A DNA stretch of 64,000 nt from contig CBDUBQ010000026.1 of assembly GCA_965365435.1 (NCBI GenBank), positions 25,641 to 89,640 on the forward strand, read 5' to 3'. Both the position numbers and the translations under genes were made by a program. Source of the DNA: an uncultured Flavisolibacter sp. GTDB taxonomy: Bacteria > Bacteroidota > Bacteroidia > Chitinophagales > Chitinophagaceae. The notes beneath the pieces were generated by a model. The model saw nothing but the letters and a program-made list of their open reading frames with translations. It did not search any database and was not told where the DNA came from. This document shows, piece after piece, positions 33,961-42,571 of the stretch (position 1 is its first letter; each line of letters starts with the position of its first letter).

Positions 33961-34542
33961 TTATTTCCGGAGGCTAACCTGCCGGCGAATGCGGCTGAGT
34001 GTTTCGGGGGTAATGCCGAGAAAAGACGCCATCATATGTTGCGGTACACGCTGCGGAATGGTGGGACAGGCATGCACCAACTCGTGGTACCGTTCTTCGG
34101 CCGAGCGGCTGAGAGAACTCACCAAGCGGCGTTGCAGGGCAATGAGGCTATTTTGCAGCAGCAGCCGGAAATAGCGTTCCATTTTCGGAACCTGCTGAAG
34201 CAACTCTTCTTCGGCTTTTTTGCCCAGCAGCAGCAGCTCGCAGTCTTCCAGGGCATCAATATTGTACGGCGAGGCTTCGCCGGTGAGAAAAGAGTATTGG
34301 TCGGCAATCCACCAGCCTTCAAATGCAAACTGCAGGATGTGCTCCACGCCCTTGTCGTCAACGGTGTAAGAGCGAAGCATACCTTTTTCTACAAACGCCA
34401 CGTATTTGTTTACATCGCCCTCCTGCAGCAGGTACTGGCGCTTGCGCAGCTTTTTGGGCTGGAAAAACGTTTTGGCCAGCTCTTTCTCCTCAGCGGTAAG
34501 CTGTATTTTTTGATCAAAATTTTGCAACAGGCGCTCATGCAT
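33961..34542 (-). CDS. Crp/Fnr-family regulator (cNMP-binding domain + HTH)
   Basis: cNMP-binding-like LRKRQYLLQEGDVNKYVAFVEKGMLRSY. C-terminal HTH VPQHMMASFLGITPETLSRIRR. Confidence 0.8.
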   Translation of the reverse strand: MHERLLQNFDQKIQLTAEEKELAKTFFQPKKLRKRQYLLQEGDVNKYVAFVEKGMLRSYTVDDKGVEHILQFAFEGWWIADQYSFLTGEASPYNIDALEDCELLLLGKKAEEELLQQVPKMERYFRLLLQNSLIALQRRLVSSLSRSAEERYHELVHACPTIPQRVPQHMMASFLGITPETLSRIRRQVSLRK

Positions 34543-34613
34543 CGGAAGCAAAAATAAGGTGGCGGGTGCCGGTTTGGCCAATTTGGCTAACCCTGAAATG
34601 GAGCCGCTGTTTT

Positions 34614-36689
34614 TTAGTAAAACAGGTCGTTCCAGATCAGCGTTCTTGACAAGTGTGTTTTTACATCAAACCGGCCGGGTTTTTTAAACTTCGCCGGGTC
34701 GCCCTGTGCTTTTTCAAACTCGTAAACCAGCACCGTGCAGCGGTGGCTGGGTGTATAGTGCCGAAAGGCGTCTTCGTCGGGCAGGCGGTCGAGCCCCGGC
34801 GGAAGATGGAGTACCACCTGTCCGCTGCTGCGGGCATTGGGCGCAATGGGCTGATTAGTGAACATAAACACCAACACGCGGTAATATCCCTTCTCTCCAA
34901 AAAACAGGGCTTTCAGGTAATTAGTGAATGAAAACTCTTCCCGCAGGCTTACTTTCACTTCGTATCGCGGTGGGTCGTTCTTGGGCGAGGCATCGTCCTT
35001 TAATTGCTCCAGCGGCGTTACCACTGCAAAACCCCCGTTGATGCCGTAATAGGAAACCTGGTTGTAGTTGGCCTTGGCAAGGGCCCGCATCAGCAGGCGG
35101 TCGGCATCGGCCCAGGTTTTTGGATTGCCTTTCAGCACAAGTGGCTGTGTGCGCCGCGACGGCTCCGGGGGCGGGAACGGAAAACGGGCATTGCTAAGCC
35201 CTTGTTCGCCCGACTGGGCCAGTTTGGGAGGGCGGGTGTTGGTTTGTTGTTGCCATTGCCATAATTGCTGCTCCAATTCTTCTTTCACCTGGCTGGTGAC
35301 GCCGTCCGTGGCACAACTCAGCGCCAATGAATCCGCTACTTTTTTAATGCTGGCATCCAGCAACGAGCCGGAGGGTTCATCCTGCAGGCTGGTAAGCGCC
35401 GTTACCCACCGGTAGCCGGCTGTGTAAAGAAGAATTTTATCGCACTGGTTTTCCAATATGGCCTGCCGGCTTTTGAAATAAAAGGCCACGGCCTGTGCGG
35501 TCAGAAAGTTTTTGTCCACTGATTGTTGCAGCTCGTCGTTGGCCGGTTCGTTGTAGCGGTGGGCATTATCGTAGGGCCGCTGCAAGGAAAAAAGGCTGTC
35601 AATCAATTCCGGCTTTGCTGTATTGGTTTGCTGGTACTTTTCATATTCTTTTACCAGCCATTGCGTCACGGTGCTGTTATAGGCGAGAATAATCCTGTTG
35701 ACATCGGGGTAGGCCGGCCAGTCCAGCGTTGCGTAGCGCACACCTGCCAGCTCCCGCAGTATTTTTGTTTCCACCACTGCAGGATATGGCGGCAACTGCC
35801 GAAAAAAGGCAATGGCTGTATCAAGGCCCTGCAGCCTGGCGTCTTCGGTTTTGTCCGCCGAGTCGGCCAGGAGCAGCGCCTTCAGGTATAACCGTTCGGT
35901 GTGCAGGGCCTGGCGCAAAGAAGAAAACAGGGTGTCGGCCGGCGGCAAGTTTTTTATGGCGGACAAATATTTCTCCGCCGCCTGCCAAACCGTTTGCCGC
36001 TGGCTGGCAGTGGCGTACTGGCCGCCGGTGCGGCTGAGAAGCAACAGATCGTGTGCATCGAGCAGGTTTGTCAATTCATTAGTGCTATTGGCAGCGCCAT
36101 TCTGTTTATGTGACTGGAATCGTAAGGTAAGAACGTGGTGCAGCAGCCCGGTGAAGGGGTTTGTGGCCAGTCCGTGCAACCCGCGTTTCTCCTCTTCTTC
36201 CAGCAGGCTTTCCCAACGGATGCCCGTTTCTTTTCGGAGCAGTGCGGTTTCGCGTTCTTCTTTCCGGATAGTATTGAAATAATCAACACTATCAAGGTAC
36301 TGCAGCATTACCGCATCATATGCCGCACCGGGCCGCAGCAGAGAAACAATGGCTTTCAGTGCATAATATTCCATGGCATACTGTGCAAAAGCAAAGGGGT
36401 AAGCCTTGCGCAATGCCGGCAGATTGCTGATTTTTGCTATCCTGCCCTCGGCATCTTCTAGAATGGCTGCAGGGCTCAAGCCACTCTTCGGTTTTGGCTC
36501 CCGGTCGAATGCCGCTGTTGTTTGCGGTTTGGTGAGGAACACGCCGCTTTTACGGTAATCGTCGTTAGCCTGGCGATTATAATAAAGCACATCATGTGCA
36601 TCCAACAGATGGATGATGTCTTTGTTTTGTGCAGCGCAGGCCAGGCAGGCAACAATGGCCGCTACAACCAGAAACGATTTTCTTCTCAT
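34614..36689 (-). CDS. Exported 691-aa protein with no recognisable domain, coupled to the TIR gene
   Basis: Signal peptide with a possible lipobox (MRRKSFLVVAAIVAC). Its ATG overlaps the TIR gene stop (ATGA at 36686-36689). A long helical N-terminal part is followed by a distinct C-terminal domain. Confidence 0.7.
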   Translation of the reverse strand: MRRKSFLVVAAIVACLACAAQNKDIIHLLDAHDVLYYNRQANDDYRKSGVFLTKPQTTAAFDREPKPKSGLSPAAILEDAEGRIAKISNLPALRKAYPFAFAQYAMEYYALKAIVSLLRPGAAYDAVMLQYLDSVDYFNTIRKEERETALLRKETGIRWESLLEEEEKRGLHGLATNPFTGLLHHVLTLRFQSHKQNGAANSTNELTNLLDAHDLLLLSRTGGQYATASQRQTVWQAAEKYLSAIKNLPPADTLFSSLRQALHTERLYLKALLLADSADKTEDARLQGLDTAIAFFRQLPPYPAVVETKILRELAGVRYATLDWPAYPDVNRIILAYNSTVTQWLVKEYEKYQQTNTAKPELIDSLFSLQRPYDNAHRYNEPANDELQQSVDKNFLTAQAVAFYFKSRQAILENQCDKILLYTAGYRWVTALTSLQDEPSGSLLDASIKKVADSLALSCATDGVTSQVKEELEQQLWQWQQQTNTRPPKLAQSGEQGLSNARFPFPPPEPSRRTQPLVLKGNPKTWADADRLLMRALAKANYNQVSYYGINGGFAVVTPLEQLKDDASPKNDPPRYEVKVSLREEFSFTNYLKALFFGEKGYYRVLVFMFTNQPIAPNARSSGQVVLHLPPGLDRLPDEDAFRHYTPSHRCTVLVYEFEKAQGDPAKFKKPGRFDVKTHLSRTLIWNDLFY

Positions 36690-37837
36690 ATGGTTTCAAT
36701 GCTTTTCAACAGCGCCGGAAACGTTTCGGGCAGTTTGTCATCGCGAAGGTCGAGGCAGAGCGAATTGCGCAGCCGGCCAATAATTTCATCCATGTGGCTG
36801 CGCAGGGCCATTAGGCGGCTTTTTTCGTCGTTCAGGTCGCGGGTGTCAACGCCCAGCCGGTTGTGCTCCGCAATTTGCTCGCCCACCTGCTGCAGACGGG
36901 CATCAATGCTTTTGATGGCTTCGGCCGTAAAGCGCATGTCGAAAAAGCTTTCGTCGAGATAGCCGGCGATAAACCGCTTGCGGCTCGAAAATTTTTGCAG
37001 CGAAAACGTATCCACCGTTTCCAGCGACACCCAGCCCGATAGCAGGCTTTCTTTGGAAACAATAGCCAGCGTTACCCTTGATGATTTGACGGAGCGAATG
37101 ATAAAGCTCCGGATATCCTCGCCTGCCAGCATGGTTTCCGAATCAATGCAAACCGAAAGGCCTTTTTCCTGCAAAAGATTTTTCACCTTATCAGCAGCCG
37201 TTTTATTGGCATGGTTGTAAGAGATAAAGACGTCGAAGATTTCTTCCATTACATCATCGGCCGGTTGGGCCGCCTGCTTTTGCGTACGGTACACAAACAC
37301 GCCGGCAGCCGCAATTACGATGGCCTGAAAGATCAGCAGGCCCGTGTTGGTGCTGTGAAGGTTTTCCGCCGCGGATTTTTCGGCATCGCCAAACGGCTGT
37401 AGCAAAAGCGCCAGCATGGTGGCGCCGAGATAAGCAAACGATAATGTATAAACAAGGCGGAACAAAAGAGCATCGGACCTTATTAGCCGGAAAGCGGACC
37501 GTTTGTACCGGAAGTAGCTGAAAAGAATAAGCGCAATTCCCGGCAGTACACAAAGGGCAAACCAGGCCCAGGCGCTGTTGGCTTTATCGCCGTATTTTCT
37601 AAAAACAGTTTGCAGAAACAAAAACAAGATGAGAACAACAGCAAAGGCAAGCCATACGGTAAACAGCCGCTTTACTGCCCGGTCGAGAGTTAGTTCCATG
37701 GCCACAGTGTGCGTTTGGTTATTTTCGAAAATCATCATTTGTGGTTCGCTGCCCAGCCACAGGTCGGCAATGCAACCGCTATCGGAACGGGAAACGAAAA
37801 GGCAACATGAGTTTTTGAATATAGCCATAAAATTCAT
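36686..37837 (-). CDS. Four-TM membrane protein with cytoplasmic TIR domain and helical C-terminal tail
   Basis: TIR_2-like FDVFISYNHANKTAADKVKNLLQEKGLSVCIDSETMLAGEDIRSFIIRSVKSSRVTLAIVSKESLLSGWVSLE, roughly 36938-37240. Four hydrophobic helices lie upstream. The start codon is uncertain (M1, M4, M34 or M47). Confidence 0.8.
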   Translation of the reverse strand: MNFMAIFKNSCCLFVSRSDSGCIADLWLGSEPQMMIFENNQTHTVAMELTLDRAVKRLFTVWLAFAVVLILFLFLQTVFRKYGDKANSAWAWFALCVLPGIALILFSYFRYKRSAFRLIRSDALLFRLVYTLSFAYLGATMLALLLQPFGDAEKSAAENLHSTNTGLLIFQAIVIAAAGVFVYRTQKQAAQPADDVMEEIFDVFISYNHANKTAADKVKNLLQEKGLSVCIDSETMLAGEDIRSFIIRSVKSSRVTLAIVSKESLLSGWVSLETVDTFSLQKFSSRKRFIAGYLDESFFDMRFTAEAIKSIDARLQQVGEQIAEHNRLGVDTRDLNDEKSRLMALRSHMDEIIGRLRNSLCLDLRDDKLPETFPALLKSIETI

Positions 37838-40745: not shown

Positions 40746-41852
40746 ATGAATTTTCTTTTTTTGCAACACCGGCGCCGGTACCGTTTTGGCCGTGTGTTTT
40801 GGACGGTGCTTGCTATTTATCTGGTGCTGGCTTTCCTGGGTTTGATATTTGCTGTATTTGGGCCGGCCGTGTCCGAAAAGTCCTTTGATCTTTCTACACT
40901 GTTGAGCTGGAAGTTTTTTTTACTGCAGGCAATTAAGATCGGTTTTTATTCTGTTTTATATTTTGGCCTGCTCAATTTGTTTTACCGGTTGATAGCCGAA
41001 CGGCACACCGCCAACAAATACCTGCAGCCCATATTGATGGCCGTGCTCACGATGGCCCTGTATTATTATCTTACGTTTCTGTTCGAGTCGTTGCTGGTGG
41101 ACCGCAAACAAATGACCGAACAACTTACCACCGGGTCTATTTTTTTCTTTCATGCCTTTGCCATGGTGTTTCACCTGGGGCTTTCGTTCAGCATTGCCTA
41201 CATCACTTTCCTGCGTGATGAAAAAAATCATAACAAGGTGCTGGAAGAACAAAAGATGCAACTGGAAGTGGAAAAAACCCAGGCCAACCTTAATTTTTTA
41301 AAAGCGCAGATCAACCCGCATTTTTTGCACAACACACTGAACTTTTTGTACGCTAAGTCGCTGCCTTATTCCGAAGAATTGTCGGAAGGCATTCTGACGC
41401 TTTCCGAAATCATGCGATATGCCCTGGGGCCGGCGGCCCGCGATGGCATGGTAGCCCTGAAAGACGAAATTGAGCATGTGCGGAATGTCATCAAAATTAA
41501 CCAGCTCCGTTTTTCCAATAACCTGAACGTGCGGTTTGAAGTGAATGGTGTGGTGAACGGCGCCACGGTTATCCCGTTTTTGCTGATTACACTGGTGGAG
41601 AACGCATTTAAGCACGGCGACTTAAAAAGCACCGAAAACCCCATTGAAATACGGGTGAACATGCTGCCGGGCGGGCGCATGCAGTTTTTTTGCCGCAACA
41701 AAAAGAAAGGCGGCCCGAAGGAGATTTCTACCGGCATTGGGCTCGACAATATTCGCAACCAACTGGACCTGACCTATGGTGCAAATTATTTACTGGCGAT
41801 AAAAGACGAAGCCGATTTTTACACCACCGAATTAACCATCAACGCCGTATGA
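40746..41852 (+). CDS. LytS-type sensor histidine kinase (His_kinase PF06580-like)
   Basis: QINPHFLHNTLNFLY motif, a multi-TM N-terminus, and ATPase-like ENAFKHG. Confidence 0.85.
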   Translation: MNFLFLQHRRRYRFGRVFWTVLAIYLVLAFLGLIFAVFGPAVSEKSFDLSTLLSWKFFLLQAIKIGFYSVLYFGLLNLFYRLIAERHTANKYLQPILMAVLTMALYYYLTFLFESLLVDRKQMTEQLTTGSIFFFHAFAMVFHLGLSFSIAYITFLRDEKNHNKVLEEQKMQLEVEKTQANLNFLKAQINPHFLHNTLNFLYAKSLPYSEELSEGILTLSEIMRYALGPAARDGMVALKDEIEHVRNVIKINQLRFSNNLNVRFEVNGVVNGATVIPFLLITLVENAFKHGDLKSTENPIEIRVNMLPGGRMQFFCRNKKKGGPKEISTGIGLDNIRNQLDLTYGANYLLAIKDEADFYTTELTINAV

Positions 41853-42571
41853 TCAACTGCCTTGTCGTAGATGACGAACAACACGCCATTGACATCCTGA
41901 AGCATTACATTGGCCAAACACCGTTTCTGCAATTGATTGCCTCCACCACCAATCCTATCGAGGCATTGCAGATCGTAAACGAGCAGCCGGTAGAGCTCAT
42001 TTTCTTGGACGTGCAAATGCCCGAGCTGTCGGGCATTGATTTTATAAAAGCCATACAGGGCAAGGCAAAAGTAATTCTGACCACGGCTTACAGCGAGTTT
42101 GCCATTGAAAGCTATGAGCTGGATGTGGTGGACTATCTGCTGAAGCCTATCCGCTTTCCGCGGTTTTTGCAGGCGGTGCAAAAGGTGGCAAAAGAAGGAG
42201 GCGATGCCGCAAAAGAAGAAACCGATACAGACGGCGATGACGACTATATTTTTGTGAAAACCGAATCGAAGGGAAAGCTGCTGAAAATAAACCTCGCTGA
42301 TATTGATTTTATCGAGGGCATGAAAAATTACGTGGCCATCCATTGCGGCGAGAAAAAAACCCTGGTGTACACCAGCATGAAAGAACTGGAAGAACGCCTG
42401 CCGCACAAGCGTTTTTTGCGGGTGCACAAATCCTATATTATCCCCATTGCCAAAATTACCGGCATCGAAGGCAACCTGCTTCGCCTCAAAGGTGTAGTCA
42501 GTGAAATACTGATTGGCGAAAACTACAAGGCCGATTTAATGGAGATTATCAGGGGCAAGATGATCCAGTGA
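41849..42571 (+). CDS. LytTR-family response regulator
   Basis: Receiver domain LVVDDEQHAIDIL...IFLDVQMP. LytTR segment FLRVHKSYII. ATGA overlap with the kinase. Confidence 0.9.
   Translation: MINCLVVDDEQHAIDILKHYIGQTPFLQLIASTTNPIEALQIVNEQPVELIFLDVQMPELSGIDFIKAIQGKAKVILTTAYSEFAIESYELDVVDYLLKPIRFPRFLQAVQKVAKEGGDAAKEETDTDGDDDYIFVKTESKGKLLKINLADIDFIEGMKNYVAIHCGEKKTLVYTSMKELEERLPHKRFLRVHKSYIIPIAKITGIEGNLLRLKGVVSEILIGENYKADLMEIIRGKMIQ

Follow-up and report, generated by a model that had tools for sequence, protein, structure and literature searches.

A membrane-embedded TIR protein with a predicted exported partner in Flavisolibacter: an uncommon form of a two-gene module that is widespread but unannotated

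To our knowledge, all characterised bacterial TIR systems (Thoeris, the effectors of CBASS and Pycsar, SPARTA, and the TIR proteins linked to retrons or STAND proteins) sense cytoplasmic cues. In CBASS and Pycsar, transmembrane (TM) and TIR effectors are interchangeable in the effector slot. Zorya has a MotAB-like 5:2 motor and proven anti-phage activity. In Hydra a membrane TIR protein pairs with a separate leucine-rich repeat (LRR) protein. The Hydra TIR protein is membrane-anchored and carries no ligand-binding domain (PMC7075850), and the inner-membrane complex ZorAB is a proposed detector of phage-induced envelope perturbation (PMC11890865). Effector-associated domains (EADs) are adaptors that recruit effectors in nucleoside triphosphate (NTP)-dependent conflict systems (PMC7159879). 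Here we describe a gene pair from an uncultured Flavisolibacter sp. in which a TIR domain is joined to a module of four TM helices (4TM) and the adjoining gene encodes a predicted exported protein of 691 aa. The pair lies in a stretch of 64,000 nucleotides (contig CBDUBQ010000026.1, positions 25,641 to 89,640), referred to as the window and numbered from its first letter.

The two genes form one operon, which is a rare TIR-carrying variant of a widespread, unannotated two-gene module. Its hallmark is a ~190-aa domain at the C-terminus of the exported partner, termed here C-dom. The TIR gene and its partner are very probably a real, conserved and co-inherited unit. A preliminary description of the locus had listed three co-directional minus-strand open reading frames (ORFs), the last of them Crp-like, and all are present. 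The 4-nt ATGA overlap that it reported between the TIR stop and the partner start is likewise found, and suggests translational coupling. The features of the pair are:

36686..37699, minus strand: 4TM-TIR gene, probable start Met-47 (ATG 37699-37697), 337 aa; stop TGA 36686-36688
37268..37699, minus strand: 4TM module, ORF residues 47-190, belonging to a stand-alone ~140-aa 4TM family with C-dom partners
36896..37231, minus strand: TIR domain, ORF residues 203-314, predicted cytoplasmic; Pfam TIR_2 and TIR
37019..37021, minus strand: putative catalytic Glu codon, ORF residue 273 (227 from Met-47), in 'GWVSLE'
36689..36895, minus strand: helical tail after the TIR domain, conserved, with invariant 'RDLN' at 36830-36841
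34614..36689, minus strand: partner gene, 691 aa; its ATG overlaps the TIR stop
36630..36689, minus strand: predicted signal peptide of the partner, residues 1-20 (MRRKSFLVVAAIVACLACAA, followed by Q), from the hydrophobicity profile
35205..36629, minus strand: variable N-terminal region of the partner, residues ~21-495, with almost no relatives
34617..35192, minus strand: C-dom, partner residues ~500-691, from exhaustive HMMER search and alignment
Minus strand, motifs of the window C-dom: FPFPPP 35166-35183; GGFAVVTPLEQ 35004-35036; GYYRVLVF 34866-34889; LVYEFE 34713-34730; THL 34644-34658

The partner had been regarded as an orphan without recognisable motifs. That view holds for residues ~21-495 and fails for the C-dom. 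When 1.84 billion cluster representatives are searched exhaustively with HMMER, the protein matches 2,373 at E<1e-3, of which 1,514 also pass E<1e-10, and nearly every match is confined to query residues ~500-690 (C-dom clusters are defined at 50% identity). A word-indexed search is insensitive here, returning only the query itself for the 691-aa protein and two matches for the C-dom. Aligned members from many phyla are 33-54% identical to the window copy. The domain sits at its members' own C-terminus, with a median of 2 residues after it, and is marked by the motifs FPWPPPxxS, GFA(L/V)VTxLEQ, GYYRV(I/L)VF, (I/V)YEFE and PGR...THL and by invariant or near-invariant G, E, R, R, Y-E and H residues; all motifs are present in the window protein. 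Searches of Pfam, NCBIfam and PADLOC give no match for the 691-aa partner, which belongs to no characterised family.

Pairing was surveyed in 80 C-dom-seeded reference-genome loci by hidden Markov model (HMM) search of all stop-to-stop ORFs, in phyla including Acidobacteriota, Bacteroidota, Pseudomonadota, Planctomycetota, Nitrospinota, Nitrospirota, Chlorobiota, Myxococcota and Verrucomicrobiota. A membrane partner lies within 1.5 kb of the C-dom gene in 75 of the 78 assessable loci, nearly always immediately downstream and on the same strand. The loci divide as follows:

48 loci: stand-alone 4TM partner of ~140-155 aa, often with a 1-4 nt overlap with the C-dom gene
25 loci: TIR-2TM partner of ~235 aa, with N-terminal TIR_2 (E = 7e-17, 5e-13) and two C-terminal TM helices
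2 loci: 4TM-TIR fusion partner (Ulvibacter antarcticus, Eudoraea)
3 loci: no membrane partner despite room on the contig
2 loci: C-dom gene at the contig edge

The preliminary description had taken the locus for a TIR cassette. The TIR domain on the 4TM protein is real, but the conserved unit is the C-dom protein with a small membrane partner, and that partner lacks a TIR domain in 48 of the 75 cases. An HMM built from 37 TIR-less 4TM proteins matches the window TIR protein (E = 3.4e-29) and all of its ~340-aa homologues. The 4TM alignment is collinear from the first helix to the fourth; AWxW and a Pro where TM2 begins on the periplasmic side are invariant, and QPF, which comes after TM3, is conserved. 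By hhalign, the helices of the TIR-2TM proteins are unrelated to the 4TM family (probability 0.3%), so a TIR domain has been attached to the module at least twice. C-dom sequences group by partner type, the nearest neighbour being TIR-2TM-linked for all 25 of the TIR-2TM-linked copies. No third gene family recurs beyond close relatives in the surveyed loci, and the contexts vary.

The full 4TM-TIR architecture was found at 12 distinct loci (the window, L002, L004, L006, L008, L023, L043, L089, L090, L091, L092 and L113). In every one of them the TIR gene adjoins one or two C-dom genes, which bears out the proposed synteny of the TIR gene with its 691-aa partner. The TIR gene precedes C-dom in five, follows it in six and is divergent from it in one; the C-dom genes of L004 and L008 were found by HMM search, one being divergent and the other upstream. 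A metagenome scan recovered 23 further loci in which a protein with the TIR domain and its tail lacks the 4TM module, the N-terminus being EAD11-fused, absent or different, and none of these 23 has a C-dom gene nearby. C-dom therefore follows the membrane module, not the TIR domain.

Some loci hold additional copies or genes. Two to three tandem C-dom paralogues with differing N-termini precede a single membrane partner in L013, L021, L022, L023, L033, L043, L053, L058, L070 and L091, which suggests that several exported proteins use one membrane component. Right after the 4TM-TIR/C-dom pair of L006 lies a gene for an 891-aa patatin phospholipase-domain protein (L006:3437-6112), with a faint TPR-S match and, at its C-terminus, three hydrophobic segments; defence systems often use patatin domains as effectors. 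A 1,241-aa WD40 beta-propeller protein (L008:142-3867) is encoded divergently, just upstream of the C-dom/4TM-TIR pair of L008.

The longest ORF of the window TIR gene spans 36686..37837 on the minus strand and encodes 383 aa. Because its homologues are 338-345 aa long and align from 'MELTLDR', the true start is most likely Met-47 (ATG 37699-37697). The longest ORF and the database entry P0002 (380 aa, from Met-4) extend ~45 codons beyond the homologues' start, across 37700-37837, and the deposited gene model P0002 is probably too long. As first described, four hydrophobic segments in the hydrophobicity profile are followed by a TIR domain, matched by Pfam TIR_2 (PF13676; E = 3.2e-16, 60.3 bits against a cut-off of 28, residues 203-314) and by Pfam TIR (PF01582; E = 1.8e-8, 34.9 bits against a cut-off of 21.3). 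Sequence matches in the PDB are the TIR domains of Roq1 and of Brucella TcpB. The Glu of 'GWVSLE', singled out in the preliminary description and here numbered 273, is aligned by phmmer to the TcpB Glu and to Roq1 E86 ('TWCLEE'), which we take to be the catalytic residue. It is invariant in an alignment of 18 4TM-TIR and 16 TIR-2TM proteins. Glu-273 occupies the position after the 'W' motif that marks the enzymatic NADase subclass of TIR domains, and the window protein is a putative NAD+-cleaving enzyme by this sequence criterion.

C-terminal to the TIR domain is a conserved helical tail of ~70 aa; the two move together as a single cassette, which behaves as if freely shuffled among proteins. 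The window cassette is 54% identical over 179 aa to that of P0020, including 'DTRDLN' and the catalytic Glu. In P0020 the order is EAD11, TIR and tail, and an N-terminal EAD11 is found on the relatives P0020, P0029, P0036 and P0045; EAD11 (Pfam PF19964) was not detected on the window TIR protein by Pfam search at E<0.1. The cassette also occurs as a stand-alone ~200-aa protein and at the N-terminus of a 1,050-aa protein (L106:4953-5555, L114:438-3587, L093, L102, L104), and among the same loci it adjoins a second, more distant TIR gene. The EAD11-TIR proteins (Kaur, Burroughs, Iyer and Aravind 2020, PMC7159879) thus share the TIR-plus-tail cassette with the window protein, and in each an N-terminal adaptor would link the TIR domain to a partner. 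They differ in that the window protein has the 4TM module where EAD11 would be, and in that its partner is a predicted exported C-dom protein and not a cytoplasmic NTPase core. EACC1 'System 4' of the same source was considered as a match and is a different system.

Other known systems resemble the pair in part. As in Pycsar and CBASS, membrane-only and TIR-bearing proteins share one operon position next to C-dom, but the window pair has no cyclase, CD-NTase, SAVED or cyclic nucleotide monophosphate (cNMP)-binding fusion, and its partner is predicted to be exported. CAP12-PCTIR_TIR is below the cut-off on the window TIR domain (E = 0.065), and the PADLOC SAVED_TIR match covers the TIR part only. 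Thoeris likewise has a TIR domain with a conserved Glu in a small operon, whereas the window TIR is membrane-anchored; ThsB_TIR is sub-threshold (E = 0.085), PADLOC ThsB matches at E >= 1e-3, and no SIR2, SLOG or Macro ThsA-like gene is found among the neighbours. The split Toll-like receptor of Hydra similarly distributes an extracytoplasmic variable part, a membrane part and a cytoplasmic TIR domain over two polypeptides. In function the pair most resembles such a receptor, though the likeness to Toll-like receptors is one of analogy only: there is no homology outside the TIR fold, the window protein has four TM helices instead of one and no LRRs, and the bacterial TIR domain is probably an enzyme and not a scaffold. 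ZorAB offers the same concept of a membrane-embedded defence sensor that reports on the envelope, in proteins unrelated to C-dom and 4TM.

Run on the window components, PADLOC-DB v2 yields TIR-level matches only (PDC-S66, E = 1.9e-10, to the TIR part) and none for the partner. The features that define Thoeris, CBASS, Pycsar and EAD-coupled systems were looked for and are absent from the pair, which is therefore none of these. PADLOC, Pfam, NCBIfam and the literature, of which no search can be exhaustive, yielded no account of the C-dom or 4TM families or of the way they pair; the preliminary description had also known of no system of this composition. On that basis we rate the pair as lying outside the known kinds of system. 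The TIR protein itself is a member of the TIR-domain family by sequence.

The exported nature of the partner is predicted from its N-terminal hydrophobic segment. The closest homologue, P0046, has an analogous signal end ('...LFA' before 'QSND'), in line with the cleavage site proposed for the window protein. P0046 is the sole relative of the N-terminal region in the exhaustive search, with 37% identity over residues 203-690, and nothing else covers residues 203-495. Composition suggests that residues ~21-495 are helical. They include an internal duplication, in which residues ~23-162 align with residues ~204-322 (window 35725-36623) as a diverged module of ~120-140 aa. The alignment score is 65, compared with 32.8 +/- 5.2 for shuffled sequences (z = 6.2; 0 of 300 shuffles reach the score); both copies open with 'LLDAHD.L...R', and P0046 has one copy.

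Across the family, what precedes C-dom is a changing set of modules of periplasmic and lipoprotein types. Pfam scanning of 100 members identified TPR, CsgG, FlgO/FlgT, DUF4384, SH3_3, PPC, CarboxypepD_reg and cytochrome c modules, and no shared Pfam family in any of the 100. An N-terminal hydrophobic segment is present in 88 of 132 C-dom representatives, many with a lipobox-like Cys, and the 40 aa before C-dom are Pro-rich (13.9% against a background of 8.0%). In L002 and L006 the partners (L002:3143-5140, L006:1409-3388) have ~470 N-terminal residues unrelated to those of the window protein, with Asp-rich 'DxDxDGxxD' repeats resembling thrombospondin type-3 repeats. Bacteroidota OmpA-like proteins carry a peptidoglycan-binding domain where C-dom sits in these two partners; no Pfam match supports either the thrombospondin-like repeats or the OmpA likeness. 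The C-dom profile has no match among PDB sequences. Structure prediction, which the preliminary description had proposed for the whole partner, is informative for C-dom in so far as AlphaFold2 models the window copy confidently (predicted local distance difference test, pLDDT, 90.2; predicted template modelling score 0.88), while a Foldseek search with the model gives nothing similar in the PDB (best E 0.18) or BFVD (best E 0.15).

The AlphaFold2 model of the 4TM module is an up-down bundle of four long helices (pLDDT 89.5), for which a PDB fold search returns generic helical-bundle similarity only. Among 49 members of the 4TM family, the N-terminus and loop 2 are basic, and acidic or neutral character is seen in loops 1 and 3 and where TM2 begins. 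This positive-inside charge pattern fits a predicted N-in/C-in topology with the TIR domain in the cytoplasm. Positions conserved in at least 80% of sequences number 11 of 62 on the periplasm-proximal half and 3 of 48 on the cytoplasmic half, as would be expected if the exported C-dom touched the periplasmic face.

The gene pairing, the homology relations, the conservation of the catalytic residue and the predicted topology are shown by the present data; a physical interaction of C-dom with the 4TM module, a trigger, an NADase activity and a biological role are inferred. The reading that we favour, with middling confidence, is a trans-envelope module with a C-dom protein in the periplasm, its partner in the inner membrane and, as output, a TIR domain in the cytoplasm. 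The predicted topology fits the suggestion of the preliminary description that envelope sensing is coupled to a TIR output inside the cell. The first component would be exported: behind its Sec or lipoprotein signal would come a variable N-terminal region for binding or anchoring, or else a Pro-rich linker, and last the constant C-dom. The second would be a small inner-membrane protein, usually a 4TM bundle, which in some lineages is replaced or supplemented by a cytoplasmic TIR domain; the N-in/C-in 4TM protein of the window would have gained the cassette that elsewhere stands behind EAD11. The periplasmic C-dom may dock on the conserved periplasmic face of the bundle, and this contact would be altered when the envelope changes, whether because the variable region binds a ligand or because the tether is strained or lost. 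The 4TM proteins would then rearrange or cluster, bringing their cytoplasmic TIR domains together, and the clustered domains may cleave NAD+ or make an NAD-derived signal, leading to growth arrest or cell death. In TIR-less versions the 4TM protein itself may be the output, for instance by membrane permeabilisation. Like the exchange of TM-only and TIR-bearing proteins in one operon slot, the shared EAD11-type cassette points towards a role in conflict or abortive infection. It is possible, though we put this forward tentatively, that the pair of C-dom and membrane partner is a widespread envelope-surveillance conflict system of diderms with interchangeable outputs (4TM, TIR-2TM and 4TM-TIR).

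Several observations weigh against the trans-envelope signalling reading. In about two-thirds of the modules no output domain, TIR or other, can be recognised, so the general function may not be effector signalling. The contact of C-dom with the 4TM module is putative; natural C-dom-4TM fusions number 0 among 149 representatives, and export of the window partner is predicted from hydrophobicity alone. The conserved polar residues of C-dom (E, R, R, Y-E, H) may mean an enzyme and not a docking domain. The genomic setting also speaks against classical defence. The window copy lies among core genes with unremarkable base composition, and the C-dom family is found neither in 50,697 phage records nor in IMG/VR. 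Of 72,556 plasmids, two carry it, Caballeronia insecticola p1 and a Nostocales plasmid, both with 4TM partners; the Nostocales pair is annotated only as 'hypothetical protein', and the Caballeronia stretch has no listed annotation. Non-generic PADLOC models (E<1e-10) are matched by only ~4 of 150 immediate neighbours, which gives no defence-island signal; the rest comprise six class III cyclases in syntenic Alphaproteobacteria and otherwise diverse housekeeping genes.

A module that is chromosomal, absent from phages, nearly absent from plasmids and not enriched in defence islands would suit a non-immune complex with a housekeeping or tethering role in the envelope, structural or homeostatic, that might for example join the inner membrane to the outer membrane or peptidoglycan, with the TIR domain as a regulatory or scaffolding add-on in a minority. 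The window copy is flanked by a GldC-like gene on one side and an outer-membrane receptor (Pfam OMP_b-brl_3/Plug) on the other, with no flanking defence genes, as originally reported, and this position between gldC and the receptor is likewise what a tether might show. So are the diderm nature of all recovered phyla, the Pro-rich linkers as in TonB, TolA and OmpA, and the place of C-dom after thrombospondin-like Asp-rich repeats in L002 and L006, where the comparison with OmpA has no Pfam support. We nevertheless consider a tether unlikely. The distribution is sparse (2,373 clusters in 1.84 billion representatives), and the full-length 4TM-TIR relatives found number only ~16. Both TIR classes keep the catalytic Glu without exception, and the TIR-plus-tail cassette is 54% identical to that of an EAD11 'effector-associated' protein. 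TM-only and TIR-bearing partners are exchanged in a manner typical of abortive-infection outputs, as known generally from CBASS and Pycsar, and tandem C-dom paralogues use one membrane partner.

The tandem paralogues can also be read in another way, as part of a toxin/immunity-like pair in which C-dom is an exported toxin or enzyme neutralised by the membrane protein, or in which the roles are reversed. The combination of an unchanging C-terminal domain, N-termini that vary and a small TM protein encoded next in translational coupling (1-4 nt overlaps) has that appearance, as do a possible active site among the conserved polar residues of C-dom and a self-contained two-gene unit in varying contexts. 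This explanation is decidedly improbable, in that the N-termini of 100 members contain no RHS, LXG, PAAR or TPS in Pfam searches, only Sec or lipoprotein signals and periplasmic modules, and C-dom is conserved and not polymorphic (33-54% identity to the window copy). A catalytically intact TIR domain on an immunity protein would be hard to explain, and two unrelated membrane partners serve the one domain.

The third gene of the region had been proposed as a member of the cassette:

33961..34581, minus strand: Crp/Fnr-type cNMP-binding regulator, likely start ATG 34542; cNMP_binding E = 7e-14, HTH_Crp_2 E = 7e-4

It is a neighbour and not a component of the module. By tblastn across ~120 loci in total, a Crp relative is absent from the other 11 4TM-TIR loci, and the sole other pair with one nearby is that of L036 (Chryseolinea; L036:7132-7677, 38% identity, just downstream). 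In six alphaproteobacterial loci (L062, L065, L066, L067, L069 and L082) a class III adenylate/guanylate cyclase gene adjoins the TIR-2TM gene; it encodes ~499 aa, lies just downstream on the opposite strand (L062:7406-8905, for example), and matches PF00211 (E = 3e-11) and PADLOC PycC (E = 2e-21). A cyclic-nucleotide link through these neighbours is just worth noting, and chance is an equally good explanation: the six loci are syntenic, and the phyla concerned are rich in both families. A three-gene cassette, in which the Crp-like regulator senses a cyclic nucleotide and controls or responds to the pair, is highly improbable: the Crp gene is co-directional, ~70 nt downstream and separated by no terminator-like site on the minus strand in a hairpin scan, and the L036 pair and the six cyclase loci would suit such a link, but the gene is missing from 79 of the 80 surveyed loci as well as from the other 4TM-TIR loci, the cyclase loci are syntenic relatives with the cyclase on the opposite strand, and Crp/Fnr proteins are common in Bacteroidota and class III cyclases in Alphaproteobacteria.

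Two further observations concern the surroundings. Between 33400 and 38200 the window has 17 terminator-like hairpins where 8.2 +/- 3.0 are expected, 14 of the 17 being on the plus strand, antisense to the genes and within coding sequence. On the plus strand at 40746-42571, an ORF for a 368-aa membrane protein is followed by an overlapping 293-aa ORF; by eye these are candidates for a sensor kinase and a response regulator.

Whatever the function of the pair, the analysis defines two large unannotated families, C-dom (at least 2,373 clusters) and its 4TM partner, which form a tight module in at least 10 diderm phyla. Cultured carriers are Ulvibacter antarcticus DSM 23424 for the 4TM-TIR form, and Polaromonas glacialis R3-9 and Caballeronia insecticola for 4TM only. 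If the reading as an envelope-surveillance conflict system is true, the window would hold a bacterial equivalent of a Toll-like receptor, divided between two polypeptides, with a variable exported sensor signalling through the inner membrane to a catalytic TIR domain. It would be the first bacterial TIR pathway triggered from outside the cytoplasm, and would be built on two families without detectable relatives, of which at least C-dom would be a new fold. In the window, a TIR domain that appears catalytically intact is fused to a membrane module whose obligate genetic partner is predicted to be exported. Should the pair signal across the membrane, sensing in the envelope or outside the cell would become part of bacterial TIR biology, in parallel to the architecture of Toll-like receptors.

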